This document shows positions 20,631 to 43,447 of a DNA stretch of 64,000 bases, piece by piece. Within the stretch, counting starts at the first letter, position 1; every line of letters starts with the position of its first letter. A program made the translations under genes and the position numbers. Under the pieces are notes generated by a model. The model did no database searches. It was not told the origin of the DNA and saw only the letters and a program-made list of their open reading frames with translations. Origin of the DNA: Candidatus Woesearchaeota archaeon (GTDB lineage: Archaea > Nanobdellota > Nanobdellia > Woesearchaeales > JABMPP01); NCBI GenBank assembly GCA_018303405.1, contig JAGVYD010000009.1, positions 195,045-259,044 of the forward strand, given 5' to 3'.

Positions 20631-20958
20631 AATCTGCATTTTCCACCAGTCCATGGCTGGTGGCGGAAAACCATTAGGCGTTCCAGAAAGTGGAAAATGC
20701 AGGGTCTGAACGAGCGACCCGGGCGACATGTCAGAAATCGACTTCACACGCTCCGAGCTTTAGCCCGGTTAAAGAATATCGATTTCTGAGCATGATGGAA
20801 ATCTTCGATTTCCAGCATCATGAAAATGTGAACATTTTCATGATGATCAAGAACTGCTCACTTTTTAGGCAGTATCCAAACACGCTGCCTGCTTTAGCAG
20901 GCAGTTCTTGACAAACTTGTATTGCTTTCTTTAAGAATGGAAAGGCCGGCTTCAGACT

Positions 20959-25300: not shown

Positions 25301-26631
25301 TTCTGTATGATATAGAAATTCCTGATTGCATATGAAATTTGGCCTGAGCTGTCATTTACGGTGATGTTGACAGCATGATCACCCTGGTCCAGGGCAGTTG
25401 GCGTGAAATTAATGTAGCCGGACAAATTCATGCTAAATGCCGGGAAAGAGCCATTAACCGAATATGAAAAGTTCAGGATGTCCCCGTATGCCTCGTCCGG
25501 GTCTGAAGCGCTTAATTGCTCAGTGTAAGCAATGCCAATTGCCCATGTCTTGTTCTGCTCAAAGGCCAGGTAAGGCGGGTCATTCACATTTGTCACATTC
25601 AGCACAATATAATTGCTGTCGCTGCTTGCATATGAGTCACTTGCTGTGAAGACTACTGTCTCATTGCCGGACCAATTGCCTGTTGGGTAGAAGGACACAT
25701 TGCCTGTTGTCTGGTTAATTACCACGGCAATGCTGGAGTTGCCTGAGACAGAATAGGTTATTGTGTCAGCATTCGATGAATTGCACTCAAGGGCATCATT
25801 GTCACTAAAAAAGACTGATAATGTTATATTGTCAATAAGGCTGTTGTCCTCCTGCCAGGTTATGTTAGGCAATTGCAGGCTGGCATTAAACTGCGGCGGC
25901 CGGTTCGTGTTTGTGACATTCAGGGTCCAATTAACAGTGCGATAGCTTCCATTTACATCGCTGACGTTCAGGGAAATATTATGGAGCCCAAAGTCGCAGA
26001 AAGACGGTGAATAGGTAAAATTACTTGAATTGACACTGGCCACTGCCCCATCAACCATCCAATTTGACGTCAGATTGTCCCCATAATCCAGGTCGGGGTC
26101 ATCTGCAGTATAATTGAATAGCAAAGTGCTGACATTTTCAGTGGCTGTCTGCTCTAGGGAAACAGGGTAATACCCTGTGATATTGGGCGGGTCATTAGTA
26201 TTGGTCACGTTGAATATTACGCTGACTGACTGTGACTCAGAGGGCGTGCCTGCGTCTCCCACCACAAGATAAAACCCATGAACCCCAACATCATCATTTT
26301 CAGGGGTGAAATTCATCAGGCCGCGCTGGGCATCGTAATCAACAAGGCTGAATGCACTTAGGTTGTTGGCTGTAAACTGGAAATTCAATGGGTATTCAAG
26401 GTCGGCATCAGTGGCATTTATCCAATAGGTGAACAATGAATCCTCGGCAATTGTAAATGTGTCCCCGTCGCTGATATTGTCAAATGTAGGCTTGGCAGCA
26501 TAGACCGGGTATGAGTTCAATGCAACAGAAAGGGCAAAAATAATAACCATTCCACTCAGGAAATATGCAGAGGCCACCCTATTTTCGGCATATGTTTCCC
26601 TGCCCATCTTATCCTGCGGATTTTTTGTCAT
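22309..26631 (-). CDS. Giant surface protein with about 9-10 cadherin-like (CADG/He_PIG-type) repeats, a CARDB-like domain and a C-terminal TM anchor
   Basis: 1440 aa with an N-terminal signal anchor. Repeat boundaries carry cadherin-linker-like motifs: VTNTNDPPNI, VTNTNRPPQF, VTNVNDPPYL, IIQNDPPF, LDVNNDPA, VTENRPPV, IRLNHAPYF, VINQPPV, VANANRAPV. Has a GGGGGGSGG linker and a C-terminal VVYLTVLTIIFSASMILFYYLYRR. N-x-S/T sequons are very dense. Confidence 0.72.
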   Translation of the reverse strand: MTKNPQDKMGRETYAENRVASAYFLSGMVIIFALSVALNSYPVYAAKPTFDNISDGDTFTIAEDSLFTYWINATDADLEYPLNFQFTANNLSAFSLVDYDAQRGLMNFTPENDDVGVHGFYLVVGDAGTPSESQSVSVIFNVTNTNDPPNITGYYPVSLEQTATENVSTLLFNYTADDPDLDYGDNLTSNWMVDGAVASVNSSNFTYSPSFCDFGLHNISLNVSDVNGSYRTVNWTLNVTNTNRPPQFNASLQLPNITWQEDNSLIDNITLSVFFSDNDALECNSSNADTITYSVSGNSSIAVVINQTTGNVSFYPTGNWSGNETVVFTASDSYASSDSNYIVLNVTNVNDPPYLAFEQNKTWAIGIAYTEQLSASDPDEAYGDILNFSYSVNGSFPAFSMNLSGYINFTPTALDQGDHAVNITVNDSSGQISYAIRNFYIIQNDPPFIVPIANQAGTENVLFNLTAYASDPNSDSLTFSSNYSSFSTVSYNSTAGGFYFTPSNSDVGNHTINITVADAYGFTNNTVFNLEILDVNNDPAMGTVTNQVAKINRNFVYYVNATDADNDVLNFTSNSSLFNVTLLTLTGSGMINFTPDISQSGNYTFNLTVYDGLNASSTVLLNITVTENRPPVLAAIANQTAYTGTMFSANISAYDLDFDHVNISVNYSRLMFSVVNSSTKTFFFNPVVGDVGNHTILVLANDSDQGYGNFTFNLEVIRLNHAPYFANASNFTCTLNSSCGFNITAYDIDGDTLSLVENMSIFSIATVNTTINTTTFRLNFTPSNISRLNYIVNLTVNDSEKLNYTLIYIVINQPPVINSYAPTSLAASINENGTVLFNHTSSDPEGYNLTYSWQLALENASLVAACGSSSGTNQTACEANARCEWHSSASGCLPINRYGSYTEKSTSGNYTYSAGYDSAGNYSLVLFVFDDLLANSSIAWNISVANANRAPVYGKMMHDSYAELYTGNFNFTNLTGEGYLRLEINGSSYISKGEYISPTIDFSDAATELAYTSLSYTGSMPNNTLLAFYTQTSDDGDFNGSAWSSAITENNSQITSDVYRYLRYKIAFNTSNLNITPNVSSVSIGYTAPNKTWSKNTVLLNWIDLDDYYYDLDSDDSINISVTGNDDINVEIDAATHRVNLRPSNDFVGTEVITFVFNDGYANVSSNRIEITTISNSSDSATVQPVAVGGGGGGSGGFVAIEEQTEQRQEEKEKELVNYEIIVPGIPVYYSNGTIITPVAIINTANETFSGIYLTASSDNSKATPILSETYIEALEVGQQKEVSLTLTSEDVYGTFEVVIEGRVQLPAFTDSAKIILSSIEKGEVNKSQVNTKIAFVRDLLNENPECLELNELLESAKTEIASGNLNRATLIIDSVIESCKYLITNKEATVEKRSPLRDAWKQVKSLIQSPVVYLTVLTIIFSASMILFYYLYRRPKVET

Positions 26632-26662: not shown

Positions 26663-29425
26663 TCACATCATCTTTTCCATTTTCATTTTCTTGTTTAGCT
26701 CCAGGCCGATTGACATGATCTTGTCATAGTATTTTTTCTTATCTTCCGCGGAAAGCATCTTGTACTTCTGCATCAGCTTCCCATAATGCTCCCTTATTTC
26801 TTCGGTTGGGCTGTTTTGGGCTATCAGTTTTTCAACCTGGTCGATTATCATTTCCATGCTTTCCAGGCCAAGCGCAAAATACTTCATGGCAGTCTCTTCC
26901 ACAGCATGCACAACTGCCTTGGATTCCTTCAACAATGCCAAGACCCTGTTCTTGTCAATTTCTGCAGTGCTGAACTTAAGCTCTTCCATCTCTTTCATGA
27001 ATTTGTTTGCTGTCTCAAATTTCTTGGAGTCCATCTTTTTGAATGACATCTCCTTCCGCAGCTCATCATAGGATGCCTCATACCCTATGCCGAGCAAATC
27101 TGAGACAATCCTTGAAAACAGGCCGTTGAGCATCTCAATTATGCTCTTGCTGTCCAACAGCTGCACTTTCTGCTCCAACACCGCAATCTTGCTGATATAA
27201 TCCTTTTCCAGCTGGGCAAAGTATTCCTGCTTCTTGACCTTCTTTTTCTTGACAGGCATGGCAAAAGGCCTGGCTTCGGTGACAAACTTGTCAATGCGCT
27301 TTCTGTTCATTACATAAATGGCTATTAGCACCAGCACCAGCATCAAGGATATTGCGAAAAAACTGACCCTTCCAGGGCTTCTTGCCTCAAAAAATCCGCA
27401 TGGCTGGCATGGCCCTCCACAGTCTATACCCTCCTCTCCTCCGTTTCTGGTACCGTCCCCGCAATTTGGGCATACAGGGCATTCGCCGCCGCAATCAATC
27501 CCTGTTTCATGCTGGTTCTGGATTTCATCATAACAGGAGGGGCATGCAGCGCATCTTCCTCCGCAGTCCACACCTTCCTCATTCCCATTCCTGAACCCGT
27601 CACGGCAGCTTGCACACCTGTCACACGGCCCGCCACAGTCCACTCCTTCCTCGCCCTGGTTCTGAATGCCATCAAAACAATTTGCGCAGGCAGGGCAAAC
27701 AGGCCCCCCACAGTCCACACCTTCCTCATTTCCATTCTTTATGCGGTCAGTGCAGGTCGGGAAATATGAGCATTCCCTGCTCAATTCCGGCTTTTTGAGG
27801 GTTGTCTTGCATTCTATGTTCATCTCAGTGCACTGCCTTACCTGGATAAATGTCGGCAGGCACGGCCCCCACTCATCACATTTCCATTCTTCGGTGCACG
27901 GCGCTATCAGGGCCGCGCTTCCGCCGCCCCCTCCCCCTCCCCCCGGGACAACTTCAGGGCCAGGCGAATATGCGCCAATTACCTGTATCACTGTCAGCCC
28001 TACAAGATTGCTGGTTGTTTTTGCCGCGAAATTGTCAGTGGCAATGTAATACACACTTTCATTCCCATAGAATGCCGGGTCTGGAGTCAGGGTTATCACA
28101 TGGGTGGTTGGATTTATGCTTATCACTATATTCGCCAAGGCTGTGTATGTGTAAGTCAGGTTATCCCCGTCCGGGTCCATGAAATAATCATCCAGGTCGC
28201 GGCCAGTCAAAATTGTATTTTGGTTCCAGGTTTCATTTGGAAGATAGTTGGCAAGGACCGGCGGCCTGTTTGTTATTGTGGCAAAAGAGGTGTCATTTGC
28301 ATGGCTGCCAGTGATGCTGCAGTTTATCCGATATGTGTAATTTCCCGGCCTGGAAAAATTTCTGCTGTACTCATAGACTTTGGTGGTATCATTATATTCC
28401 ATTGGCCGCCCGGCATCATAAGCGCCAGAGCTGTAAAAGGAAAGATTGCAGTCTGCGCCTGTCAATGGCTGGTTGTTCATATAAGTATAATTGGCATAAA
28501 ATTTGACCTGCTCACCAGAATATCTTACATAATAACGGGTGTCATCATAAACCTGGATTGTATTCTGCTCAGTGACATAATAGCTACCAGACAATTCAAA
28601 TACAAAGAATGTGATGCTTGTGTTCGTAAGGCTCAATGCAATGCAATCAAACATGGAGCAAACCTCGCCATCATGGATTATAGTTGGCGATTCCAGTGTA
28701 AGATTATAGAAAGTTATTCGTGCTCCTGTCATAAGCCCGGGGAGATAAGTAATGTTTATGTTCATGAAATTCCTGCTCAAGTTTGCATATGAGTCGAAAT
28801 CATACCCATCTATGCCAACATCCTCTGTGAAATTTATTGACGCCATGTTCGGCATCCCGAGCCTGAAATCTGCCACATTGTTCCAGCAGTCAAACAATGT
28901 AAGGTTGGTTGTCTCATAATTCCTGAAATTATCCCAGGTTGGCTCAAGGCAAATGCTGAAATTCACATCTTTGCTTGTATTGGCATTGCTGCATGATGAA
29001 TTATCGGCTATTGTGACAATTGTATGGAATTGGCCAAGATCACTGATTGACGGGATGAATGAAATCACACCCAATTCAGTCACATTATACAAACCAGTGC
29101 TATCATAGTATGTTATATTGTGCCCATCATCATCACTTGCGCTTATATTGCAATAGTATGAGCTGCTGACATTCACGTGAGTGGGGCAGGAATTCCCTGT
29201 GTTCGGGGGAGTATTGATGCAGAACCTGACAGAGCCAGTCACTTGGCCCTGGATTGCCGGCGCATTGGAATATTTGGCCGTGCCGGCATAAATTGCATAA
29301 TTTACAGCAATAACACCGATGAACAATGCAATAGCAACCAATGCCACTATATTGTTGGGCATAATTAAATCCAGGCCAGTCTCCATTTTTTTCACTTTCC
29401 GCTTTACAGCCTTCTTATGCCCCAT
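26663..29425 (-). CDS. Type I membrane protein: cadherin-like ectodomain, poly-Gly hinge, five cysteine-rich repeats, TM helix, 214-aa cytoplasmic helical tail
   Basis: 920 aa with signal anchor IVALVAIALFIGVIAV, GGGGGGGGS at aa 495-503, Cys repeats at aa 558-676, TM helix FFAISLMLVLVLIAIYVM, then a KE-rich tail. The start overlaps the stop of the upstream 191-aa gene by 11 nt. Confidence 0.7.
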   Translation of the reverse strand: MGHKKAVKRKVKKMETGLDLIMPNNIVALVAIALFIGVIAVNYAIYAGTAKYSNAPAIQGQVTGSVRFCINTPPNTGNSCPTHVNVSSSYYCNISASDDDGHNITYYDSTGLYNVTELGVISFIPSISDLGQFHTIVTIADNSSCSNANTSKDVNFSICLEPTWDNFRNYETTNLTLFDCWNNVADFRLGMPNMASINFTEDVGIDGYDFDSYANLSRNFMNINITYLPGLMTGARITFYNLTLESPTIIHDGEVCSMFDCIALSLTNTSITFFVFELSGSYYVTEQNTIQVYDDTRYYVRYSGEQVKFYANYTYMNNQPLTGADCNLSFYSSGAYDAGRPMEYNDTTKVYEYSRNFSRPGNYTYRINCSITGSHANDTSFATITNRPPVLANYLPNETWNQNTILTGRDLDDYFMDPDGDNLTYTYTALANIVISINPTTHVITLTPDPAFYGNESVYYIATDNFAAKTTSNLVGLTVIQVIGAYSPGPEVVPGGGGGGGGSAALIAPCTEEWKCDEWGPCLPTFIQVRQCTEMNIECKTTLKKPELSRECSYFPTCTDRIKNGNEEGVDCGGPVCPACANCFDGIQNQGEEGVDCGGPCDRCASCRDGFRNGNEEGVDCGGRCAACPSCYDEIQNQHETGIDCGGECPVCPNCGDGTRNGGEEGIDCGGPCQPCGFFEARSPGRVSFFAISLMLVLVLIAIYVMNRKRIDKFVTEARPFAMPVKKKKVKKQEYFAQLEKDYISKIAVLEQKVQLLDSKSIIEMLNGLFSRIVSDLLGIGYEASYDELRKEMSFKKMDSKKFETANKFMKEMEELKFSTAEIDKNRVLALLKESKAVVHAVEETAMKYFALGLESMEMIIDQVEKLIAQNSPTEEIREHYGKLMQKYKMLSAEDKKKYYDKIMSIGLELNKKMKMEKMM
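27398..27754 (-). repeat. Five tandem cysteine-rich repeats within the CDS, each about 22-26 aa
   Basis: CTDRIKNGNEEGVDCGGPVCPAC / CFDGIQNQGEEGVDCGGPCDRC / CRDGFRNGNEEGVDCGGRCAAC / CYDEIQNQHETGIDCGGECPVC / CGDGTRNGGEEGIDCGGPCQPC. Confidence 0.85.
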
Positions 29426-29990
29426 TTTTTACCCCGCCTTCCGGTTTCTCGAGCTTTTTCACAGCATTGGCCTTTGAAATAAGGACATCCTTTACAGTGA
29501 ATTTAACATCCCAAAATGCAAGAAATTCGGTTATCTTGGCTAAGTGCCTATTTGGCACCAACACGCTGTTTCGCCCTATTGTCTCGCCTGAAATATTTTG
29601 CAGCATGCCTTCTGCTTTTGATTTTCCTCCACGGCCTTTCAATGCATAGCCAAAAATTGTTTTTTTGCTGTGGCCAAGGCTGCTCAAATCATAAGAAACA
29701 ATCGCCTTTTTTTCCAGGCCAAAGATTTCAGACATATCCTTGTTTTGCCTGATGCTAAAGCCATGCATTAATGCATTCAGCTTGGCTGGGTTGCCTAAAT
29801 CATCTTTTTCAAATAAACTGACTTTCCAGCCAGGTGGCAAGGCCAGGAATTTTCGGAGGGCTTTTTCAATGCCTGCAGGAGACCCCTTGCATATTATCAG
29901 CAGCTGCAAGCCACTTTCGAGAATTATAATATCAGAAACATCGCTTCTTGATGCAATAAACCCTGTTAATTCAGACTGCCACAAAACCAT
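29415..29990 (-). CDS. Hypothetical cytoplasmic protein, first gene of the 191aa-920aa-1440aa operon
   Basis: 191 aa with no TM segment and no recognised family. It is translationally coupled to the 920-aa gene through an 11-nt overlap. Confidence 0.45.
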   Translation of the reverse strand: MVLWQSELTGFIASRSDVSDIIILESGLQLLIICKGSPAGIEKALRKFLALPPGWKVSLFEKDDLGNPAKLNALMHGFSIRQNKDMSEIFGLEKKAIVSYDLSSLGHSKKTIFGYALKGRGGKSKAEGMLQNISGETIGRNSVLVPNRHLAKITEFLAFWDVKFTVKDVLISKANAVKKLEKPEGGVKNGA

Positions 29991-30272: not shown

Positions 30273-30698
30273 CTATAACAACTTTCTTCGAACATCAATC
30301 AGAACATTGCCAGTATAATTTCCTGGTGAAGCAGAGCTGGGAGCATTGACTGTCAAATTAACATTGGCAATCTCACCTGGCTCAAGCACCACTGGGTTAG
30401 GCTCGGCTATGAAAAATTCCCTGATTTCCCCTTCAGAACTTATCCTTATCTCAATCCTGAAATTCTCAGTATTTTCCAGAGTAATGTACCTGGTTCCTGA
30501 GCCACCAATGGGCATGCGGCCAAAATGCAGCCTGTCCTTATTCAAGTTGAATCCCACTCCATAATCATAGGAAAAAAGAGCGTCTGTGGGAATTTTTTGC
30601 ACTTCTATCCGGATAAACAAGGAATGAACAGCATAAGTGATGGCAGCTGCTGTCAAGGCTACCATGACCATCAAAAGAACTAACTGATTTTTTTTCAT
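30273..30698 (-). CDS. N-terminally anchored single Ig-like (PapD/ASH-like pattern) domain protein
   Basis: The tracked start is GTG and was moved to the ATG (MKKNQLVLLMVMVALTAAAITYAV). LHFGRMPIGGSGTRYITLENTENF...VVLEPGEIANVNLTVNAP...PGNYTGNVLIDV is a beta-sandwich pattern. Confidence 0.5.
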   Translation of the reverse strand: MKKNQLVLLMVMVALTAAAITYAVHSLFIRIEVQKIPTDALFSYDYGVGFNLNKDRLHFGRMPIGGSGTRYITLENTENFRIEIRISSEGEIREFFIAEPNPVVLEPGEIANVNLTVNAPSSASPGNYTGNVLIDVRRKLL

Positions 30699-30823
30699 TT
30701 TGCCCCCGGATTTGTTCAAAGCGAACACTTTTAATTATTCTGCTGTTATCAAGCCAAAAATCCATATCTTCTGCCGATAGTTGTTAACCTCTGGATATTT
30801 GTTAACAGCTGCGGCTTAAATAC

Positions 30824-32038
30824 CTATGCAACCTGTTTGTTTTCAGCCTGCTCCTTCCTGCCCCTGTTTCTCATCAGCCACCAGGCATTCAGGATGGCCA
30901 TTATTATGAAAATGACTATTAAAAGCGTAGTTGTATTCACAGGCGCTGGCTTTTCCTCTGGCTTGGGCACTACTTCCAGTTGGCCAGTTGTTATGCTTGT
31001 GGCATTTGAATAAAGCAATTCTATTTCAATGTCGTGCATGCCAACATCAGTCCCTTTTGTTTCCCAGAATGACCTGATTACTGCACTTCCAAATGGCTTA
31101 ACTGGCGTTACTGGCGTTGTAAAGTGATACTCATATGTGCCTCTTTTAACAGTTACCTCTGCATAAAGGTCTGTTACCGGGTCATTCCAGTTGGATAGAA
31201 CCTCTATCTCAAATTTGTTTATTGAGTCATTATAGGCTGTTTTTGTATAATTGACAACATCAACCCTTAATTCCCCGATTTGGAAGAATCTTTCATAGTA
31301 TTCGGATTTTTCATCATAATCAAAATAAGCCTTGACCATGTATGCGCCAGGCTTTTGCCCTTTAGTGTCCCAAGATGCCTTGAGCTTGACCTTGTCCAAT
31401 GGATTTACATATACAGCCTCGGTGAATTGGACAGAGCCAACCATTTTCCCTGATATGGCATCAAATATCTCCGCATAGCCAGACACTTTTTTAACCATCT
31501 CTGTGCCCCTGCTAATGCCTTCCAAAACAAACCTTGCCGGCTCACCTTCCCTTGCATTGAATGAATCAAAAGTGAAGTCGAAATATTTGCCAGGATAAGG
31601 CACATTCCAGATATGCCGGTGCATGACGCTTACAACAATATTGAAATTGAATCCGCCATTATCGGATTCTTCAGGAATCTCAGTTGCAACTATGTGGGTA
31701 GCTACCCTGCCAGCCTGCTTCATTTCAGCAGGCATATGCGCATAATATGATTGACATACAGTTTCCAAAGGCTGAAGCACAAACCTGGGCTCAAAATCCA
31801 GTGTTATGTAATCCTTTAACGGGCCTTCAACAGTAACCATAATCTCATCAGGAATATTTTTGCTGTTCCTGAAGCAAATGTTGAATTGCCGTGTGATGTT
31901 TGGCGCATATTCAGTTTCGACGTTTACACTGATTCCAAGCGCAGCAGCATCCATGGAAACAATGGCAATGAAGCTTAAGGCCAACACTCCTAAAATGAAA
32001 AGAATGCTCAATTTCCCGGCAGTTTTTCTTGCTGACAT
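30824..32038 (-). CDS. Secreted multi-Ig protein with a C-terminal TM anchor (paralogue of 33960..35171)
   Basis: 404 aa with a signal peptide, a shared VPYPGKY motif, and a C-terminal TTTLLIVIFIIMAILNAWWLMRNRGRK anchor with a basic tail. Confidence 0.55.
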   Translation of the reverse strand: MSARKTAGKLSILFILGVLALSFIAIVSMDAAALGISVNVETEYAPNITRQFNICFRNSKNIPDEIMVTVEGPLKDYITLDFEPRFVLQPLETVCQSYYAHMPAEMKQAGRVATHIVATEIPEESDNGGFNFNIVVSVMHRHIWNVPYPGKYFDFTFDSFNAREGEPARFVLEGISRGTEMVKKVSGYAEIFDAISGKMVGSVQFTEAVYVNPLDKVKLKASWDTKGQKPGAYMVKAYFDYDEKSEYYERFFQIGELRVDVVNYTKTAYNDSINKFEIEVLSNWNDPVTDLYAEVTVKRGTYEYHFTTPVTPVKPFGSAVIRSFWETKGTDVGMHDIEIELLYSNATSITTGQLEVVPKPEEKPAPVNTTTLLIVIFIIMAILNAWWLMRNRGRKEQAENKQVA

Positions 32039-32122
32039 TGTATTGCTGTTTTTTTATTACTGTTGTTTTTGTGCCTGCGTTGACGTCAGTGCTCCTGTTC
32101 CCCGCAACGGCCAAGCCAGCGC

Positions 32123-32842
32123 TTATTCTATCTCTGCTGCGACGAAAGTTAAATATGCAACCCTCTGCATGCCAACACTATAGTCGCCTTCATCAGCAGG
32201 CACAGTCATGTTGATTTCAATAACAAGCGACCTGTCATCAGTTGAATAGGTCAAATTATGACATATGGTATAAATAAAACTTTTGTTTATGGGTGTCCAG
32301 TTCATGAAGCCTGTTGAGTATGAGCTTGATTGCGGAAACAAGGAAAGGCCGTCATTACCGTTTAGTTTGCAGCTGTCCACGCTTGCCCTTGATATATTGC
32401 CTTCAACAACAGCAAACCTGAACTCATCAGTCGCATTGTCGCCCAAAAAGAAAGAATCACCATCAGCTGAAGAGCTTAATGTAATATTGATATAGCTGTT
32501 GCCGGTATTTTCGATCTGAATTCCCCTGCAGTCATAAGGGTGCGAGTATGAGCCAGAGCTTTCGATGCATTCATTAAATGTCCCTGGATTTACCTGCTCT
32601 GTGCTCAGGTCTGTTGCCTGGCTAATCTGGCCAGAGCCAAAATCAATGTCCTCTGCAGGTATGGACAAGGAAACAAGGTTGGTTATCCGAATTGTGACTG
32701 TCCCATATGACAAGCGGCCTGTAATCCATGGAATGACCGGGCTATCCTTGATAATGCCCATATTCAGCACAGTCCCGAATACAGAAAGGGTTACGGTTGC
32801 CGTGAGCAATGCAACTAGCCAGCTATTTGATATTTCTTTCAT
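32123..32842 (-). CDS. Fimbrial-subunit-like secreted beta-sandwich protein (paralogue set C/E/H)
   Basis: 239 aa with a signal anchor, then ITGRLSYGTVTIRITNLVSLSI. Carries the shared motifs IDFG, IENTGNSYINIT, FRFAVV, FMNWT, and a C-terminal strand VAYLTFVAAE. Confidence 0.5.
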   Translation of the reverse strand: MKEISNSWLVALLTATVTLSVFGTVLNMGIIKDSPVIPWITGRLSYGTVTIRITNLVSLSIPAEDIDFGSGQISQATDLSTEQVNPGTFNECIESSGSYSHPYDCRGIQIENTGNSYINITLSSSADGDSFFLGDNATDEFRFAVVEGNISRASVDSCKLNGNDGLSLFPQSSSYSTGFMNWTPINKSFIYTICHNLTYSTDDRSLVIEINMTVPADEGDYSVGMQRVAYLTFVAAEIE

Positions 32843-32860
32843 AAAATGACCCCAGGCACG

Positions 32861-33091
32861 CTACGGTGAGGATGCAGTAGCTTCTTGCGCTGAAGCAGGC
32901 TCAGAAGGAAGAATGTTCAAGCTAACCTGGCCCTGAACAACCGGCACTCTTGTTGATTGGGCATAATCTGCCCTGTCGAGCACAGTCCAGACGCCCAAAA
33001 CAGATACAACAATCGTAATAACTAAAAGGATTACAACAGTTTTTTTTGATACATCCATTGATCCCGCACCCTGAATTGGCATTTCTTCCAT
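32861..33091 (-). CDS. Mini-protein: signal anchor plus one beta-strand motif only
   Basis: 76 aa. KKTVVILLVITIVVSVLGVWTVL is followed by VVQGQVSLNILPSE, the same G-x-V-x-x-x-I strand that opens the neighbouring subunit-like proteins. Confidence 0.4.
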   Translation of the reverse strand: MEEMPIQGAGSMDVSKKTVVILLVITIVVSVLGVWTVLDRADYAQSTRVPVVQGQVSLNILPSEPASAQEATASSP

Positions 33092-33096
33092 ATCCC

Positions 33097-33903
33097 TTAC
33101 ACCTGTGCTGCAGTGAATGTTATTGTAGCTGACCTTGTGCCAGTTGGCTCGTCCAGCGGCAATGTCAAGTTGAATTCAACTGTGATTGTGTCGTTCATGT
33201 TTCCCCAGCTTAGGTTTCCGCAAATAAGCGCAGCTGATGTCGGGATTGTGGTCCAGTTTATGAAGCTGCTATTCAGTGTTGAGCCCTGCGGCTGGATTGA
33301 TACATTGGATCCTACATTATTCCTGCATGATACATTGATTAGATTCCCATCCTGGAAAGTATTGAAGTGATATGATGTGCCCATTATCTGGAATTCAGTC
33401 TCATTCTTGGTCCTGTTTCCGTCCAGCACAGCATACCTGAAAGCGCCGCCGGATGTTCCGGTGTACAGGCCATCAGCATCCACGCTTGAGTACATGGTCA
33501 CATTGATGTTAACGTTGCCGTCATTCTCAACTTCCATGCCTGTGCAGTCCCTGCCAGTATCACCACCTGAAAGCCCACCATTGAGCCCAGTGCAATTGTT
33601 GAAAGTCGCATAATTGTCTGCTGTCTCTGATGAAACTTCAGTGTTTGGGGAAGTTGTCGAGATTGAGCTATTCCCAAAATTAACATTGCTGTTGACTGTC
33701 AAAGAAGACAATGCTGTGATTGTAACCTGGACTGTGCCAGTTGTTGCCATGCCAGTGATCCTGTCATTGAAGAAGCCGAAAAGGCTGCCTGCCACTGCCA
33801 GGCCCATGATAACAACCAGAATAACAACAAGCCTCGTATTTGGAATGCCTGAAATCAATCTTTCATCGTCGATGATTTTCACCTTGCTTACTATGCTGGG
33901 CAT
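33097..33903 (-). CDS. Fimbrial-subunit-like secreted beta-sandwich protein (paralogue set C/E/H)
   Basis: 268 aa with ITGMATTGTVQVTITALSSLTV, VNFG, VENDGNVNINVT, FRYAVL, FINWT and LPLDEPTGTRSATITFTAAQV. Confidence 0.5.
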   Translation of the reverse strand: MPSIVSKVKIIDDERLISGIPNTRLVVILVVIMGLAVAGSLFGFFNDRITGMATTGTVQVTITALSSLTVNSNVNFGNSSISTTSPNTEVSSETADNYATFNNCTGLNGGLSGGDTGRDCTGMEVENDGNVNINVTMYSSVDADGLYTGTSGGAFRYAVLDGNRTKNETEFQIMGTSYHFNTFQDGNLINVSCRNNVGSNVSIQPQGSTLNSSFINWTTIPTSAALICGNLSWGNMNDTITVEFNLTLPLDEPTGTRSATITFTAAQV

Positions 33904-33959
33904 ACCAAGTTACATGCACTATTTAAATTTTTCTATTCAGAAGTGGCACAGAAAGGCAA

Positions 33960-35171
33960 TCAGGCGCCTGGAGGGGCATTCTTCTTTTTCAGGTACATCC
34001 ATGCCCATAGCGCATTTCCTATAACCAAGACCCCGATCAGTATGTATATTGGGCTGAATTTTGAGCTGCCGGACTCCGGCGCAGCAATTGCCAATGCTGT
34101 TATCCCTATTATTTCCGCCCTTATGGCATCCTTTTCCACAATCACCCTTATCTGCTTTTCAGAAGTCTTGCTTCCATACCTCATCACAAGGGTCCCGGCA
34201 TAGTTGCCTTCCAGAATCCCGACAGTCTCCCAATATGCGGGCAATGCTTTCTTCTCCCTTGGCTCAATGCTGTATGGAGTGCTTGAAACATCAGCGACTT
34301 TTCTTCCATCCAAATCAAAAAACTGGATTCTTGCTGACGCGTCATCAATTCTGCTGTTCCCTATATTTTCCAGGAGGACATCAAACTTGGCAATCTCGCC
34401 CAGAGTGAAGCTGTTCACTGATATATCAACCGGCGACAAGAAGAAATCTCCGACAAGGAACTCCTTTTCAGCCATTGTGCTGTTGCCATCATATTCCACT
34501 ACAGCAACTGCCCTGTACTGGCCCGGTCCGGTTTCAACTTCCCAGTCAAGCTGCAATTCAACATTCTGCTTTGAGAAAAGGCTGACAGGGCTTCCAATAA
34601 TCCTCTTGACCTCACTGCCGTCGGGCGCATAGATTATTATCGTAGATGCAACGCTTTCAATTTTTTCAGTCCCGAGGTTTCTCAATGGCAGGTAAAACTT
34701 GACCTTGTCGCCCTGGTCCTTTACCATGAATTCCATCTGGACATATTTCCCAGGATACGGCACCAGGACATGTAGCTGGCTCACAACAGCGACCAATGCG
34801 CTGACAGTTGTTTTCCCTGTTTCTACCCCGCTAACTTCCCTGACAGTGATTTCAGCATCATTCAGCCCCGGAGGCAATGATTGCGGCAGATTATAGGTAT
34901 ATGTGAATTCAAATTCCCTGTCTGATTTTTTCATTTGTATCCTTTCAGCAGAAAGCGTGACGTACTTTGCCAATGGGCCGTTCACAAACACCACGAGATT
35001 GACATCAGCAGCCTCTGAATTGATGACCTTGACTTTCACGGCTTTAATAATCCCCGGCTCAAAATTCACAGTTGTCCTGCCTGGGCTGATGGCGAACGCA
35101 TTGGCTGCGCTTGCCAGGCTAACTAGAAGAACCAAGCATACAATCATCCGAATTATCCATTCCTTTCTCAT
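33960..35171 (-). CDS. Secreted multi-Ig protein with a C-terminal TM anchor (paralogue of 30824..32038)
   Basis: 403 aa with signal peptide ...LASAANAFA, VPYPGKY, and a C-terminal SPIYILIGVLVIGNALWAWMYLKKK anchor. Confidence 0.55.
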   Translation of the reverse strand: MRKEWIIRMIVCLVLLVSLASAANAFAISPGRTTVNFEPGIIKAVKVKVINSEAADVNLVVFVNGPLAKYVTLSAERIQMKKSDREFEFTYTYNLPQSLPPGLNDAEITVREVSGVETGKTTVSALVAVVSQLHVLVPYPGKYVQMEFMVKDQGDKVKFYLPLRNLGTEKIESVASTIIIYAPDGSEVKRIIGSPVSLFSKQNVELQLDWEVETGPGQYRAVAVVEYDGNSTMAEKEFLVGDFFLSPVDISVNSFTLGEIAKFDVLLENIGNSRIDDASARIQFFDLDGRKVADVSSTPYSIEPREKKALPAYWETVGILEGNYAGTLVMRYGSKTSEKQIRVIVEKDAIRAEIIGITALAIAAPESGSSKFSPIYILIGVLVIGNALWAWMYLKKKNAPPGA

Positions 35172-35452
35172 TTTTGCCGTGCCGTGAGCGTCACATTTTC
35201 TTTGTCTATCCAGTCGCTTTCCCCTGCTCCAAGGCTTTTCACGGAAAAGCCCGTGATGCCGCTTCCAATTGCCTTTACAGTGACCTCAATTTCAGTGTCG
35301 CCGGGGTTGCTGAGGCGCCAGGCATCACTCTCCTCTGCAACATCCAGCCCGATTCTGCTTTTCTTTTCGAAGGGGAAGGGGAGGACCAGCAACAGGCCGG
35401 CCAGGGTTAGGCAGACTATCAACAAAGCTGTTGCCGGGATTGTTTTTTTCAT
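35168..35452 (-). CDS. Small N-terminally anchored beta-rich protein
   Basis: 94 aa. MKKTIPATALLIVCLTLAGLLLVL is followed by about 60 beta-prone residues. Its stop overlaps the start of the next gene by 4 nt. Confidence 0.42.
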   Translation of the reverse strand: MKKTIPATALLIVCLTLAGLLLVLPFPFEKKSRIGLDVAEESDAWRLSNPGDTEIEVTVKAIGSGITGFSVKSLGAGESDWIDKENVTLTARQK

Positions 35453-35457
35453 TCCCT

Positions 35458-36723
35458 TCAGTCCTCCCTCTTCACATATTTTCCAGTGAATGTTATTGTC
35501 GCACTCTTGCTTCCAACAGGCTCAAGCAACGGAACCTCAACCAATATGTCTATCACAGCAGTGTCATTTGCATCTGAATAATTGAGAAGCTTCAGGAAAG
35601 TCTCATTTGTGTATGGGACATTTGTCCAGCCTGTTGTTGAAGCAGACCAGTTGAAAGAGCCAGACTCATTTGAATGGTTCGCAACTTTGTACTGGAAATA
35701 CGCAGACGCTGACTGCTCGCTGTCCCAGAGGTAGTCTTCGGCGCTCAGGTTCACATCAACATAGGAATTGCCGTCGTTCCTCAAGAGAAACGGCGGGGGG
35801 GAAAGGTCAGTTGTATTGTCCCTCTGGCCTATAAGCATGCTGCCGAAATCAACTGTGCTGTCAACCAGGGTCAGGCTGATCAGCGAATTCATTGTAAAAT
35901 TGAAGACAGTGCTGTTTTTCGCATTCCCGAAACTGTCGTAGACAACAACCCACCACTGGTACCAGTAATTGTCATCGCCAAAATATCTCAGGTCAGCCGG
36001 GATAGTATAATTTGAGTAGTTGATAAGGTTGTACTGCCTATTGTCAACTGCACAGCCGCCCTGGCATGTTATGAAAAGGCTGAATTGAAGAGTATCATTG
36101 TCATAATCAGACGCATTCCACTGGAAATTTGGAGTGCGGTTTGTTATTATGGAATTGTTTGCAGGATAAGTCAGGTTCATGGAATTTGGCGGATTATTCA
36201 GCCTGCAGCAGATTTTCCTATTGTACTCACTGCAAGAGCCAACATGCGCATTTGTATCGTTGTTGTCAGTTGCTACTGACGATGCTATTGATGTCAGGCA
36301 AGAGTAATTTGCAGGGCATGTGTCGTTGTAATGGCCACATGTAATGTTGCCATAAACAGAATTTATGCAGGCGCTGTTATTGTATGAGCTGAAAGTGGAA
36401 ATCTGGGCATGGGAGTCTGTTGTCTTGTTAAGGTTAAGGAATTTTGTCCCAAAGCAGGAAGTATTGACCGTATTGTTTGACATCGAAGCGTCGCAGCACA
36501 AAGCAAAGGGATAGCTTGCCACTGAAGGCAGTTCAGCATGCGCATTGTAATAGCCTGCTGAGTCATTCCTGAAAAAAAGGTAAGATGAATCGCTGCATGT
36601 CCCTGCAGTGGATATTGTGCAGTTGAGCCCGGCGCCTATGGAAGCATAGCTATATATTAATGCCAGGCCAAATACAAGCGCAAGCAATACTGCCCATTTG
36701 TTGTTTAGTCTCATCTTTTGCAT
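35458..36723 (-). CDS. Secreted protein: Cys-rich N-domain, FN3/Ig-like middle, C-terminal fimbrial-subunit-like domain (paralogue set C/E/H)
   Basis: 421 aa with a signal peptide. The C-terminal 150 aa carries VDFG, LRNDGNSYVDVNL, FQYKVA, FNWS and VPLLEPVGSKSATITFTGKYV in the same order as 32123..32842 and 33097..33903. Confidence 0.5.
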   Translation of the reverse strand: MQKMRLNNKWAVLLALVFGLALIYSYASIGAGLNCTISTAGTCSDSSYLFFRNDSAGYYNAHAELPSVASYPFALCCDASMSNNTVNTSCFGTKFLNLNKTTDSHAQISTFSSYNNSACINSVYGNITCGHYNDTCPANYSCLTSIASSVATDNNDTNAHVGSCSEYNRKICCRLNNPPNSMNLTYPANNSIITNRTPNFQWNASDYDNDTLQFSLFITCQGGCAVDNRQYNLINYSNYTIPADLRYFGDDNYWYQWWVVVYDSFGNAKNSTVFNFTMNSLISLTLVDSTVDFGSMLIGQRDNTTDLSPPPFLLRNDGNSYVDVNLSAEDYLWDSEQSASAYFQYKVANHSNESGSFNWSASTTGWTNVPYTNETFLKLLNYSDANDTAVIDILVEVPLLEPVGSKSATITFTGKYVKRED

Positions 36724-36738: not shown

Positions 36739-39700
36739 TTATCCTGTGCCCTGCACAAGCCTTCCTCCATTCTCCTTTATTAGCCTCGAGCTTCCATACT
36801 TGCTCACATTGCCCGCATTTGTCACGTTCGCGCCAAGAATTGTCATGTTGCTGTAAGTCCAGAGGTATATATTCTTTTTTTGCAGGTCGCAGTTATCCAA
36901 AATTATGCAATTCAATGCACTTAGGGTCCAGTTGCCTGATGAAGGACAGTTGCAAAGAGGCGACTGCACAGTTAGCCCCTGCTGTGATGTCTGGTTCAAA
37001 TTGCCTGCCAGGTCCTGCACATATGCAGTATAAGGGTATGCGCCAGGGCTCAGGCTTGTATAATTCTGGTACAGCTTGTATGTTCCTGCCCTGTAAGAGG
37101 CATTAATTTCCTGAATGGAAATAATCCTGTTCCATATCTTTACTTCATCAAGGATTCCAAGGTATGCCTGGGTTTCATCAAAGCCGCCGCATGCAGCGTC
37201 TTCCTCTTGCCCCAGAACAAGACACCCTGTGATTTGCAGGCTTCCATTTGACATGTTTTTTGAAATTTTTGGCACACCATCCTTGTACATGTAAACAGTT
37301 CCATTGTCGCCATCCCTTAATATCACAATATGATGCCAGTCACCGTCATTGAGCGTCACTCCTGTACTAAACGAAGCATCCTTAATGAAAACACTTGCGC
37401 CATAATTGAAAATCAAGAACTCATTATTCCCGGTTGCGGATGAGCCATGAATAGGTGTGCCAGACTTCGAAGTGTCTGAAGACTTGGCCCAGAATTCAAC
37501 TGTAAAATTATTCAGGCCATCCATTGCTGACCTGCTTAGGTTCACCCAGCTGGATGTTGTGCCGTGCAAAAGCACGCCGCTTCCAAACCTGCCGCTTGTT
37601 GTTGAGCCTGAAAAGACTGTCCCATTATTCCCGTAAGTTGACCAGTCCCTCGCAAATGTGGAATTTTCCCCTGATTCCCTGTTGAATCGCCACCATCCTT
37701 TCAGGCTTCTGCCGAAATCAACAAATGCTGTTCCAAGATAATCGTCTGAAACAGAAACATTCACAATAGCCCATGGCTCTGTTGTTATCAGCCCATTACT
37801 CTCAGTTGCCTCATCAAATGATATCTGCGGATAGACCTTGTCCACCTTTAGCTCAATCAATTCTGTTGCATTTACATTTCCCGCCCTGTCCTGCACATAA
37901 GCCTTGAAATTGTAGCTTGTGTTGTCAACAAGGTCTGTGAAATTGCGGTAGAGACTGTAAACGCTTGCATTATAAGTTGCGTTGATTTCCTCTGGCGACA
38001 ATGGGCGGTTGAAAATCTTGACGTCATCAATGAAGCCCGGGAAATTTCGCCATGCACCATTCTGTGTCCCTCCGATAAAAATTGAATTGTTAGTTTGTGA
38101 GGCATCCATGACCCCGCTTACAGCAGTTATTGTTATTGTCCTGCCGTCAATATAGGTCCTAATGTGGGTTCCATTGTAGGTCCATGCAATGTGGTGATAA
38201 GTGCGGTGGTCAAGAGTCACAGAAGAGGAATAATAATTTGTGCTGCCTATATATGTCTGGGACCTGACAATAACTGAGCCAGGATTGTCAAACAACTGCA
38301 CCCCATTCCCATTTCCCCAAAGGCCGTGGTGTATTATTTGTGTCTGGTTCGTGCCACCCCATTCCTGGGTCTGGTTGCGGACCTTGAACCAAAGCGAATA
38401 TGTGACATAGGAAAAATTCAGGGACGCATCAGCCGGAACCACGATCCTGTCCACAGCGCCATCAAATTCCATCCCTCTCCCCATTTTGCCTTCAGCATAA
38501 ACCGGGCAGCTGGAAGGCACGCATGTTGCATTATTCTCATAGCTTGACCAATCCCTGAAATAAGTGTCATTCTCGCCTGTCTCATTGTTGAATCTCAGCC
38601 ATAAAACCAGGCTCTTGTTCCAGTCAAAGAATGCAGTAACATTTGTGCTGTTGTCAAAAACAGTCACATTAACCCATGTCCAGTTCCTGCTGATGTAACT
38701 GCCATTCCTGTCATTTGTGTAGTCGAACGTGATATTGGGCTTGTCGCCATCGTACCAGGTTCCTGCCAGGCACACTTCCAATATGCCATCGCTGTCCGGG
38801 TCAGTTGACACATTATTGGCATAGCATGCAGAATCGTAAACGCATTTGCTGGCCTCATTGCAGCATGCCCTGTCGCTTGAGCTTGTTGTGCAGCTCCCTA
38901 AATCACATGTCCTTGAAAGCCCGTTTTCCCCACTGTCATCGCCGCAGCAGGCCGTAGCAGTGACATCCCCGCCAAGGTCCCAATTGCTTCCTCCTGTGAT
39001 TGCAGTGCAGATTTCTGAAGTGGAGTCCCCTCCCATCCAAAAACTGCCATGGCAGTATGCCTTTGTTGGGATGGCTCCAACCATTTCGCCTGTGTCATAG
39101 CATGTGTTGTTCAGGCCACAGCTTGTTCCACTCCTGCAGCATGTGTTGTTTGTTGTTGCGTTATATCCTGTTGGGACATCTACCCCTCCCCTGTCATAAA
39201 CATTATATTCTGTGCCATAGCTTGTCCTGTAAGCCTCAAGATTGTCAATAACAATCTGCATTTCAGTATCAGAATTTGAATAATCCCACATTCTCCAGTA
39301 ATAATCAGGGTTGGTCTGCGCAGGGGTTGTCAGTGTGCCATTGAAATGGCCTGACTCATTTGCCTTGCACGTAAATCCAGACATGCTTTTGGTAAATACT
39401 GAGCCATTGGCCAGATGGACTGTCCCTGTTGTTGTGGCAGCATCCTGGCAGCATGAATGGTTGTTGTCCCTGAACCGCATGTACCATCCAGAACCTGAAG
39501 AATCATTTATGCATTTGTAGTCGAACTCCACAGTAAAGGCAGTGCTTGGGAAATTTATTTCCGGAGTCCATTGTGCCATAACCTGGTCCCAGGTAGAATC
39601 GCCGTCAGCCTGGATATACCAGCTTCCGCCGTCTATGTTTTTCCCGCTGGAAATGACATAAAAGCAAATGTTTGCAGCGCCGCAGGTAGTGTCTTCTGTC

Positions 39701-42700
39701 CAGTTCCATCCGTCAGAGCCGCTGTATTCTGAAAACCTTCCATTTGTGAAAACAGTCAAGTCATCCCCGCAGCAGCCTAAGGTCGATGTGTCAGGATATT
39801 CCCCCACATTGCTTTCTCCTGCGTAAGCGGCATTCCAGCTTATGTTCAGGGCAAAGGTGCTGCTTCTTGGGCTGATGACACCCTTCTCACGGCCGCAAAC
39901 ATAGCCGCACCAGTAATCTGCGTAATCCGATGTATCGCATTGCAGCCATGTTCCTGTCCCGCCAGATGAATAGCAATAGCCTATACTGTCATTCCCGCCA
40001 AGATTCAGATGATTATATGCAGAATTCGAATTTACAGCAGGAGTGGCATCTGGAGTGAAACATGATTCACCTGCAACGCAATCAGACGTTGCGCTGCAGC
40101 ATGCATCTTCAGCATTAACAAAAACAAGCTCAGAAGAGGAGCTGTAGTTCCTCTCTATTATTGTATTTTCATTTGAATCGTCGCCGCAACACGTGCTGTA
40201 AGAGCCTTCGCCGCCAATGCTCCAATTATATGTTGATGTGCAGCCTGATGCAGATGATGTGCAAAGTGACTCGTTTGTGTCCCTGTCATAAAGGTAAGCG
40301 CTTATTGTGCAATAGCCTGCACCGCTGCAATTCTGGCCTCCATAGAATGTTTCGGATGAACAAAAGTCAGTATTGTTGCACTGGCCTGTCACTGTAGTGC
40401 CGCTGCCAGAGCAATAAGTCCCAATATTGTTATTATAGCTGGTGGTAGCGCATGAAGCAGCACCGCCTGTGCAGAAGCCCGTTCGCCCTGTTGTAACACA
40501 GACGCTTGCGCATGAAGTATTGGTCGCTGAACAATCATTGTTTGGATCGTCATTTGCATTGGCATAGGTGCACGTTCCACTTCCACTGCAATACCGGCAT
40601 GTGCCTGAGCATGTTGTTCCAACTGTGTCTTTTGTGGCGTTTGCAATATTATTGCATGTTCCTGCGCCATCACATTCCTTGCAATCGTAGCAATTTGCTG
40701 CTTCCTGCCCTGATGCAGGCGTCTGGCAGGTTGAATAGCCAGCAGTGCATTGGCTTGCGCAGGTTCCAGAGCATGTAGTTCCGGTGTTATAGCCGCAGGT
40801 TCCTGAAGTTCCTGAGCATACTGAACTGTCCAATATTGTCTGGCCAGAGCATGTGTAGGAGCCTGTGCAATCACCTTGCGGATCAGTGTTTCCAGGAACT
40901 ATTTCACAAAACTCATCTCCAAATCCATCCCATTCACAGCACGTGCCTATATCATTACATTCAACTTGTGTATCACAAAAAACGCCTGTGCAAGTGCTGC
41001 CACAGACACCCTGGCCGCGATACTGCGTATCATATCCTGTGCCATTTACTGCAATGCCTGTGAAATTGTTTGTAATGTTATTTGTTATTGCATTGTAAAT
41101 ATTCAACCGCGACCATACTACTGTCTCTTCATTTATTATGCTCCCTGTTGCTATCAGCAATTTTTTCATTTGTGCATTATCCAAGGAATCATTGTACTGG
41201 TAAACCAAAGCAGCCCCTCCTGAAACAAAAGCTGCAGATATGCTTGTTCCTGAGGCAAGTTCCGCATTTGCATTATGGTCAACAGAATCAATGTCCTCCC
41301 CAGGGGCCAAAAGGACAATGGCATTATTGGAGCTGGTAAGGGCAGATAGACGGTCATTTTCTGTGGACGCACCAACTGGAAGAGCTGTTTCTGCACAAGC
41401 AGGGCTGACAATTGTGTTGTTGTACGTGTTTCCTGCTGCTGCAACAGTAAGTATGCCAAGCCCGCTCAGCTCATCGACTTTTTGCGCAACCGGATTATCA
41501 TAGCATATCCCAGTATATCCCCCTGCACCAATGCTCATGGATATTATGTCAACATTTTGCTCCTTGCAATATTCCAGCCCTGCGAGAATGTCTGATTCAT
41601 AGCCAATTCCCTGGGAATCCAATACCTTCACTGCTATCAGCTGGGCAGCAGGCGCCATCATGTATGTGATGTACGAAACCAAGGTGCCGTGGCCATTGTC
41701 ATCCTGGTAATCATTGGTCTGGGCCAGGACATTATACCCATACGCAGTGTTCTGCACAACTGATGGGTTTACTCCTGTGTCAAGGGCGCAAATCTTTATT
41801 CCTGAGCCGTCCAATTGCAAGCCATAGGCTGTGTTGAGATAATACTCTTTTGCCTCACCAAGCATGATTATCTTTGATGAGTTTTCAAACAGGAGGCTGA
41901 CTGGCTGGTCAAGATAAACCTTTTCAATGCCCTTATTGCCTGTCAATTTCGACAGCCTTGTCTTGTCCATATGGGCAACATCAATATCATCAGTAACAGC
42001 TATTTCGCCTATTTTTTTGCTTGATGGGGTTTTGTACTTCACAATAACCCTAATGGGCTCAGAAGCCCTCTCCAATTCATGGATTACATTCTTGTCAACA
42101 TGGAACTGGTATCTTGCAAATATCAAATCCTCTTCTGTGTAATTGGAGGCATTCTCCACCCAGCCTTGGTCCAGGTCAGGAAACAGGCCAGTGATGAAGG
42201 ACAATCCTTTCCCAGATTCATTACCTGCCTGGCTTTGGTCCATGTCTGTGTCCATTACATAATCAATTCTGTCAATTGTGACAGCTGAATCATCAACTTC
42301 AAAAACCAGTGAATAATTTTCCCCTGGCAAAGAAATGTTGCAGGTGTCTTTGCATTCAAGGCTGAAATCCCGGATATCAGGCTCAACAAATGATGCAGGC
42401 AACTCTGCCCATTGGCCTGAATAAACGCTGTCATCAGCTTCGTCGTAATACACCACCTGCGCCCTTACTATGTTGTCATTTCCAGCTGAATTTTTCCCAA
42501 CAAAAACATTGTAAGCGTCATCCCATCCTGGCGCTGATGGAATAAACCCAAGGACATTGCAGCATGATTCGCTGCCATAGCATTCATATGACGATTCAGC
42601 AGTTTCAATGTTTTCAATTTCCCATCTTGTGCATGTGCCCTCAACTTTTGCATCAATTGAGAATTCTGTTCCACTGGCATCAAAATCAACCACGCCTTTT

Positions 42701-43344: not shown

Positions 43345-43447
43345 CGGCAACCCCGGCCTCTTTATTGATAATCAAGCGAATAATCGTAACCCACAGAAGG
43401 AACCAGCCTGCGAACGCTATGCAGGAATGGTTTTTTCATTGTGAGGC

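Follow-up and report, generated by a model that had tools for sequence, protein, structure and literature searches.

Which kind of structure, if any, is built at the cell surface by a block of eight genes for small, membrane-anchored or secreted β-strand proteins in an archaeon of the Candidatus Woesearchaeota? The block lies at positions 30273-36723 of a 64,000-nucleotide stretch of DNA (the window: assembly GCA_018303405.1, contig JAGVYD010000009.1, positions 195,045 to 259,044). A reading made from the DNA letters alone, here called the sequence-only reading, had taken it for a duplicated cassette of a donor-strand fiber system, in which each subunit would lend an N-terminal strand to the immunoglobulin-like (Ig-like) fold of its neighbor. 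All eight open reading frames (ORFs), named A to H in the order of transcription, were confirmed on the minus strand at the coordinates that had been assigned to them. Their products very likely form a multi-protein surface assembly. That this assembly works by usher-free strand complementation, arranged like the WxL clusters and the Pam pili, is a reading to which slightly less than an even chance is given.

The first line of evidence is paralogy. The block encodes two free-standing subunits, D (268 residues; 33097-33903) and F (239 residues; 32123-32842), which are 32% identical (E 1e-33). D has a signal anchor, an ITG motif, an amphipathic N-terminal strand at residues 56-63, and then a β-sandwich with two cysteine pairs and 12 N-glycosylation sequons. 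F is its paralog in the core module and the ortholog of the single subunit in simpler loci. The same domain forms the C-terminus of A (421 residues; 35458-36723), which matches D with E 3e-9. A hidden Markov model (HMM) of the subunit family, built in this analysis, matches D (2e-56), F (8e-55), residues 275-422 of A (8e-20) and the 76-residue protein E (32861-33091; 7e-10). The three paralogous domains with five motifs that the sequence-only reading had described are therefore real, with E-values far past chance; the terminal strands are present as well, although they had been listed in another order than the domains, which is trivial.

A differs from the free-standing subunits in what precedes the domain: a Sec signal, a Cys-rich N-terminal region with 27 N-glycosylation sequons and a Big_13-like Ig domain, without the signal-anchor and strand module of the subunits. 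It is a candidate tip adhesin. E has only what A lacks. Its match to the subunit HMM is limited to positions 5-58, i.e., the signal anchor and the first strand, and E is thus, by this match, a truncated subunit N-terminus that consists of nothing but a subunit-type anchor and a single G-x-V-x-L-x-I strand, as had been noticed before. It is a candidate membrane-anchored strand donor or cap. The second mini-protein, B (94 residues; 35168-35452), had been grouped with E, and this part did not hold. B has an N-terminal transmembrane helix and a β mini-domain of about 60 residues with an NxG motif, and hhalign comparisons of B with the subunit, with H and with the anchored multi-Ig proteins gave nothing significant. 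B and E are, as far as these comparisons tell, not paralogs, B being another type of N-anchored mini-domain.

The remaining three genes encode anchored partners. C (403 residues; 33960-35171) has a signal peptide, an ASH-like first domain, Ig domains resembling WxLIP_HBD, CARDB and FxLYD, a transmembrane helix at its C-terminus and a basic tail; it is a candidate membrane-anchored chaperone or platform (type 1). G (404 residues; 30824-32038) is the second, core-type protein of this kind. Both share the VPYPGKY motif and are 22% identical across 390 residues (E 2e-16), which bears out their earlier description as paralogs. H is either a 151-residue protein that starts at a GTG (30273-30728) or a 141-residue protein that starts at an ATG (30273-30698), and consists of an N-terminal transmembrane helix and one Ig domain of the ASH/HYDIN type. 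In other genomes, the C-type and G-type anchors form separate orthologous groups, and the duplication is therefore old and differentiated. The term "duplicated cassette" is correct in so far as the paralogy is significant; it needs to be amended in that the duplication is ancient and the conserved cluster is larger than the cassette, reaching on to 29415-29990, 26663-29425 and 22309-26631.

None of this is visible in the family databases. Searches of Pfam and NCBIfam with the eight proteins gave no family at threshold for the subunits, the tip or the minis, and 150 members of the subunit family gave no Pfam or NCBIfam family at a meaningful level. Profile searches of the PDB sequences with the subunit and anchor families did not yield anything significant either. 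Close homologs of D are rare: 5.8 billion sequences contained 16 of them, the majority in metagenomes of groundwater. An exhaustive profile search returned 1525 representative clusters (50% identity) at E <1e-3 and 500 at <1e-10, and nearly all members are 200-260 residues long. The organism names attached to members and loci are Woesearchaeota, Nanoarchaeia and "archaeon", together with two third-party-annotation (TPA) assemblies labeled Methanosarcinales, and no others; the window itself contains genes for PolD, Cdc6/Orc1, MCM, PAN and a tRNA-intron endonuclease, which identify its host as archaeal. The lack of any database annotation for the 76- and 94-residue ORFs could suggest that such small ORFs are not genes and that the similarities reflect chance or ORF calling. 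This explanation has next to no probability left, as it is refuted by the size of the family, by the synteny described below and by the orthologs of both minis, which are 36-65% identical and occupy the same positions in other genomes; paralogy E-values from 1e-33 to 7e-10 speak against it as well.

The second line of evidence is gene order. In the window, the cassette is part of an uninterrupted minus-strand array that reads, according to the ORF listing, 2203-residue giant, A, B, C, D, E, F, G, H, 191-residue protein, 920-residue protein and 1440-residue protein. The spacing mostly ranges from 4-nucleotide overlaps to about 100 nucleotides, which makes co-transcription plausible. For comparison, 22 related loci were fetched and scanned with an HMM for each component, and ten independent loci had enough flanking DNA (the L001 group, L005/L009, L008/L011, L013, L014, L015, L016, L017/18, L019/20 and L021). 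In 10 of the 10, down to about 25% identity, the mini is followed by the subunit, this by the C-anchored multi-Ig protein and this by the N-anchored Ig protein. Two of them fit in part: L015 has no H-type gene, and in L021 the mini was missed by the mini HMM, although a 170-residue ORF there has the same architecture. In most loci the 920-type protein comes after this core module, and the closer loci additionally have the tip, B and C-type anchor genes upstream and the 191- and 1440-residue genes downstream, with B constantly located between the tip and the C-type anchor. The members of the cassette were thus found together in fixed order in every related locus that was long enough, and the co-occurrence survey that the sequence-only reading had called for came out in its favor. 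From this synteny, the ancestral layout is deduced to be [A-B-C]-[E-F-G-H]-191-920-1440, and D to be a lineage-specific extra subunit. The number of subunits indeed varies, with one in L008, three together with two identical minis in L005, and three in L017.

The mini, in turn, is conserved as an ORF beside the subunit gene in the nine related loci where it was detected. The possibility that the minis are decayed gene fragments was rejected for this reason. The tip is more variable. Orthologs of A were found in L001, L005 and L008, and the length of the tip protein changes from 421 residues here to 623 in L008 and to at least 1737 in a LamG-containing giant in L016. All three variants have a C-terminal subunit domain without the signal-anchor and strand module. 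The tip described earlier is therefore one of several variable adhesin-like proteins built in this way. The L016 protein (L016 1-5211) is the equivalent of the 2203-residue giant of the window and has its subunit-family domain at residues 1591-1733 (E 7e-15); since it bears this domain, it would serve there as the "large" partner.

What do these proteins share that could connect them to one another? N-terminal statistics over 203 family members point to a short strand directly after the signal anchor. The n-region reads S-[NRKQ]-[KRQ] in 145 of the 203. It is followed by a conserved helix, TLAxLLxxAIVxSLxGT, by 4-22 variable polar linker residues ahead of the fold, and then by the motif (I/L/V)-T-G-(F/Y/L/M)-A-T-x-G-T-(V/A)-N-(L/V)-T-(I/V), called the TG-strand here. 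Conservation reaches 99.5% at G51, the residues at 60 and 62 are hydrophobic in about 100% of the members and alternate with polar ones, and N59 is often part of a glycosylation sequon. The minis of distant loci have one or two G-x-V-x-L-x-I copies behind the same type of anchor. The 920-type proteins all start with a transmembrane helix followed by TG...G-x-V-x-(L/I/F)-C-I-N-x-P-P, with CINxPP in every ortholog, which agrees with the claim that the 920-residue adhesin opens with a subunit-like strand. In two distant loci, the H-like proteins (L017, 12173-12808; L019, 12123-12752) have a C-terminal extension that ends in a strand-like segment of this kind, SAKVGITIVNP and DGKILISILN, respectively. 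The strand can therefore ride on different carriers.

The same statistics bear on a different explanation, namely that the subunits and minis, with their conserved hydrophobic N-terminal helix and an Ig-like head, resemble type IV pilins or archaellins and would be assembled by type IV machinery that is encoded elsewhere. The N-terminal helix is conserved far beyond a usual signal peptide (SNK-TLAxLLxxAIVxSLxGT), there are weak, helix-driven NCBIfam matches to UpsA and pilus proteins, and comparable proteins of Nanobdella, consisting of a transmembrane helix plus Ig domain, have been named archaellin-like. However, the class III motif ([KR][GA] before the hydrophobic helix) occurs in only 22/203 members, in line with the reported absence of class III signal peptides, and the linker between helix and fold is variable and polar. 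Moreover, the top 50 that Foldseek returned for the subunit model discussed below include neither a type IV pilin nor an archaellin, and type IV systems contain nothing that corresponds to the C-anchored multi-Ig partners. A PilB/ArlI ATPase, a PilC/ArlJ platform or a prepilin peptidase was found neither in the 64-kb window nor in the flanks of the related loci, and the Pfam-scanned window ORFs include no prepilin peptidase and, as the sequence-only reading had stated, no PilB/PilC-type protein and no usher (PF00577). On the strength of the signal-peptide statistics and the fold matches the type IV pilin reading was rejected, and it is regarded as quite improbable.

The fold of the subunit was modeled with AlphaFold2. 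With an alignment of 17 sequences the model was poor (predicted local distance difference test, pLDDT, of 56) and was not used; with 150 diverse members, the pLDDT reached 77.4 and the predicted template modeling score (pTM) 0.69. The model shows a helix at residues 22-44, residues 45-67 in no sheet, and then eight strands. The N-terminal strand is thus unpaired in the monomer, next to a β-sandwich core that is confident without a donor. In a Foldseek search of the PDB, the best matches of this model are TLP-1b (E 5e-3, probability 0.92) and TLP-1a (E 7e-3, probability 0.90), followed by Hyper2 and the CanX and CanA cannulae (E 0.1-1) and by the FimF, FimG, FimA and Csu pilins. It is striking that the leading matches of the model, though weak, are nearly all donor-strand fiber subunits. 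The fold comparison that had been proposed therefore points in the expected direction as to which proteins are matched best; their strength does not follow, as all are weak and none lies below E 1e-3, with TM-scores of 0.2-0.5.

This weakness is one of several observations that weigh against strand donation. Mean-field direct coupling analysis (DCA) of 203 sequences recovered the C193-C228 pair and many sheet contacts, and it puts residues 64-70 beside the C-terminal strand in antiparallel orientation (68-265, 70-263). Because little chain separates residue 70 from the core contacts that come next (V74-S92, G77-T262), this A strand (64-70) is read as lying in cis. The terminal ...SATITFT strand is then already flanked, so that a classical groove beside it is not evident, and the sandwich may be complete in cis. 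The open groove beside the terminal strand that the sequence-only reading implied is not supported by this pairing. Strand 56-63, the candidate donor, shows no clear covarying partner in the same analysis. In H, too, a strand, an A strand and an xFG motif follow directly behind the transmembrane helix, as they do in the subunits, so that "strand 1" might be no more than the strand with which an ASH-like fold begins; the hhalign comparison of subunit and H, with a probability of 39% over the A-strand/xFG motif, is suggestive only. Two further observations concern the motif itself. ITG also stands directly behind the transmembrane helix of the unrelated 2203-residue giant and of its L001 and L005 orthologs, which is why TG may be a processing or sorting signal, whether or not a donor strand also starts there. 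The transmembrane helix and the n-region are, likewise, unusually conserved, which hints at sorting or processing. Lastly, no sequence link to the TasA, WxL or PapD families was found above a curated threshold.

Much of this suits a static, membrane-anchored set of glycoproteins, S-layer-like or for adhesin display, in which complete Ig-like domains stand side by side, the N-terminal strand is the first one of the fold, or a hairpin, in cis and the minis are small membrane partners or regulators, without strand exchange and without a polymer. Both DCA and AlphaFold2 place the A strand beside the C-terminal strand in cis, every component retains its transmembrane anchor, and surface proteins of DPANN archaea that combine Ig folds with transmembrane anchors are commonly taken for S-layer proteins or adhesins (bioRxiv 10.1101/2023.10.27.564410). 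A static set leaves unexplained, however, why a gene for an anchor plus strand only, sometimes in two copies, is kept by the subunit gene in nine loci and why the same strand is common to unrelated adhesins; it also sits poorly with the unpaired N-terminal strand in the AlphaFold2 model. It is the main rival and should be considered a real, if rather doubtful, possibility.

The anchored partners add domain identities that touch on the proposed chaperone role. The profile of H matches HYDIN ASH domains in the PDB (E 4.5e-8), H scores above the Pfam threshold for HYDIN/VesB/CFA65-like Ig, and one ortholog touches the Pfam family "PapD-like". H is homologous to domain 1 of the anchors (BLAST 6e-5; hhalign probability 88%). 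Judged from these matches, the ASH/PapD-like superfamily includes both H and domain 1 of the anchors; in Pfam, ASH is presumably part of the PapD-like clan. PapD_N and PapD_C themselves gave no match, and H and anchor domain 1 reach ASH/HYDIN-type families only. Domain 2 of the anchors matches WxLIP_HBD in 9 of 24 anchors, with a best E of 4.7e-5 (0.017 for G itself), below the gathering score; anchors also match CARDB and MG2, and NCBIfam gives an FxLYD domain. With a C-terminal transmembrane helix present in the anchors, the earlier description of them as anchored multi-Ig proteins can be extended by an ASH/PapD-like domain 1 and a WxLIP_HBD-like domain 2.

How does such a set of parts compare with known systems? 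The WxL clusters of Firmicutes (Lactobacillales, Bacillales) come close in layout. They encode small WxL proteins that consist of the domain only, large WxL proteins that carry binding domains and end in a WxL domain, and WxLIP. The latter has two Ig domains (DUF916-DUF3324) plus a transmembrane helix at the C-terminus, and one of its strands is predicted to close a gap in the sandwich of WxL (PMC10599100). The archaeal cluster similarly has domain-only small proteins (D and F), large proteins with a variable binding part and the same domain at the C-terminus (A and the LamG giant of L016), and a C-terminally anchored multi-Ig protein with the sub-threshold WxLIP_HBD matches mentioned above. 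In contrast, the 150 subunit-family members and A contain no WxL Pfam domain, the anchors give no DUF916/PGBD match, and the archaeal host has no peptidoglycan. The conserved signal anchor and TG-strand of the subunits are further differences, and the strand-only minis and the ASH-type H have no WxL counterpart.

The Pam pili of bacteria of the candidate phyla radiation (CPR) offer a second parallel. They have solved donor-strand pilins and PapD-like chaperones with a transmembrane helix at the C-terminus, and they do without an usher; the tip protein has no donor strand, and a transmembrane-anchored terminator inserts an extra N-terminal strand (bioRxiv 10.64898/2026.03.03.709456). By analogy of architecture, the archaeal system would share the usher-free layout, the Ig-like pilins and donor-strand exchange, which is proposed here and solved there, as well as PapD-like chaperones with a C-terminal transmembrane helix, a tip without donor strand and a transmembrane-anchored terminator. 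In both cases, the organisms that encode the system are ultrasmall episymbionts. Pam pilins, however, have two domains and use the inter-domain linker as donor, whereas the candidate donor here is N-terminal and follows the signal anchor, the candidate anchor is a strand-only mini instead of an RbmA-like protein, and the system is archaeal. What sets the present system apart from both WxL and Pam is a subunit family that appears to be unrelated in sequence, a conserved module of signal anchor and TG-strand, the strand-only minis and an H protein with a single, ASH-type domain.

Other donor-strand systems resemble the cluster in fewer respects. Chaperone-usher pili (Fim, Pap, Csu) are represented among the structural matches of the subunit model by FimA, FimF, FimG and Csu pilins. 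They share with the cluster an amphipathic strand at the N-terminus, an adhesin in two parts of which the C-terminal one is a subunit domain, and candidate chaperones that presumably come from the PapD-like (ASH) superfamily; unlike in those pili, there is no usher and no outer membrane here, and DCA shows no groove beside the C-terminal strand. The TasA superfamily (TasA, AbpA, AbpX, CanA/CanX and the Sulfolobus threads) forms chaperone-free, Sec-secreted, glycosylated β-sandwich donor-strand fibers. CanX, CanA and Hyper2 are among the best Foldseek matches, and the local motif order (G-T-x-x-L strand, F..G, xENxGN) resembles that of TasA, but TasA-type systems have neither anchored multi-Ig partners nor strand-only minis. 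The relationship to TasA that had been considered is not detectable by sequence: membership was rejected at this level, with an hhalign probability of 0.2% against a TasA sequence and with 0 of the 150 subunit-family members matching Peptidase_M73. The best structural match, TLP-1, comes from pond-water fibrils (CryoSeek, PDB 9ikj/9ikk for TLP-1a/b) whose lollipop-shaped protomer completes the Ig-like fold of another protomer with its N-terminal strand (PMC11494351). It is a bacterial (Flavobacteriales-like) protein with 12-13% identity to the subunit, a TM-score of about 0.3 and an ordinary cleaved signal peptide. The statement that the locus fits no annotated archaeal pilus system is therefore right as to sequence membership and should be qualified as to layout, which parallels the WxL/WxLIP clusters and the usher-free Pam pili.

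Under the strand-complementation reading, the region would be an expanded form of a conserved cell-surface assembly module of DPANN archaea. The core, E-F-G-H, would supply a strand-only mini, a small subunit, a C-anchored multi-Ig protein and an N-anchored Ig protein; the accessory genes A-B-C(-D) would add the tip adhesin (A), the mini-domain (B), another of the anchored multi-Ig proteins (C) and one more subunit (D), and large adhesins (920 and 1440 residues) are encoded downstream of the core. The amphipathic TG-strand of the subunits, the minis and the 920-type adhesins would be lent to a neighboring protein. This would give the chain a polarity: adhesins that have the C-terminal subunit domain but no strand would occupy the distal end, whereas the strand-only mini, with its transmembrane helix retained, would cap the proximal subunit and fasten it to the membrane. 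C, G and H, as ASH/WxLIP-like proteins with a membrane anchor, would hold the subunits or pass them on, a role likened to that proposed for the transmembrane-anchored PapD-like chaperones of the CPR Pam pili and of WxLIP in the WxL clusters. The product might be a short glycosylated fiber or a membrane-tethered chain that shows adhesins for contact with the host.

The rest of the array surrounds this module with large surface proteins. The 2203-residue giant (36739-43350, minus strand), which lies 15 nucleotides upstream of the tip gene A, has a cytoplasmic N-terminal tail, a transmembrane helix followed by ITG, an S8 subtilase domain and two LamG/pentraxin domains; it is considered to be associated with the cassette. 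On the other side, also on the minus strand, the 191-residue protein (29415-29990) is cytoplasmic, without transmembrane helix or Pfam domain. Its sequence contains the conserved motif FGYALKGR...GRN..LVP, its gene keeps company with the cassette in the closer loci L001, L005 and L008, and it may regulate the system or act as an assembly factor in the cytoplasm. The 920-residue adhesin-like protein (26663-29425, minus strand) consists of a transmembrane helix, the TG-strand (QGQVTGSVRFCINTPP), a cadherin/Big_9-like region, six tandem Cys-rich repeats (C.DG..NG.EEG.DCGG.C..C), a second transmembrane helix and a cytoplasmic coiled tail of about 190 residues. The 1440-residue cadherin/Big_9 surface protein (22309-26631, minus strand), with a C-terminal transmembrane helix, is the last conserved member of the array.

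Some other features of the window deserve mention. Genes for a MoxR AAA+ protein (49135-50121), a DUF58 protein (48140-49054) and a BatA/VWA protein (47185-48138) stand at the head of the minus-strand array to which the cassette belongs, and a MoxR gene (19775-20654) also adjoins the cassette in L021; these genes may be linked to the assembly of surface proteins. The region at 12400-14220, about 1.8 kb long, AT-rich (GC content 0.41) and non-coding, lies directly upstream of cdc6/orc1 (14221-15438) and of the genes for PolD (15431-20630). It is probably a replication origin and includes short repeats, both direct and inverted, whose cores read TTCGGGGT (13816-13870 and 14108-14134). A tRNA-Gly(TCC) gene (59583-59669) was called at 87 nucleotides, a great length for a tRNA and perhaps the sign of an intron; the window also encodes a tRNA-intron endonuclease (10767-11441).

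DPANN archaea live attached to hosts, and the molecules that make this contact are largely unknown. The cluster described here is conserved, widespread and wholly unannotated, it is set among giant adhesins, and it has the parts list of a strand-complementation fiber. A literature search found no paper that joins DPANN archaea with donor-strand assembly. The most far-reaching interpretation is that the cluster is the first chaperone-assisted, usher-free donor-strand fiber system of Archaea, specific to DPANN, made of an unannotated family of more than 1500 clusters and equipped with strand-only membrane anchors or caps; it would then correspond, on the archaeal side, to the CPR Pam pilus and be a candidate for the host-attachment filaments that have been seen where DPANN archaea and their hosts are in contact. 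Taken with all its parts, this is held to be rather unlikely. If true, it would mean that usher-free, membrane-chaperoned donor-strand assembly exists in both ultrasmall radiations, the CPR bacteria and the DPANN archaea. A function could be assigned to a large orphan family of proteins, and cryo-electron tomography, proteomics and heterologous assembly would gain defined targets. The strand-only mini-protein, finally, would be a new kind of fiber anchor or cap.

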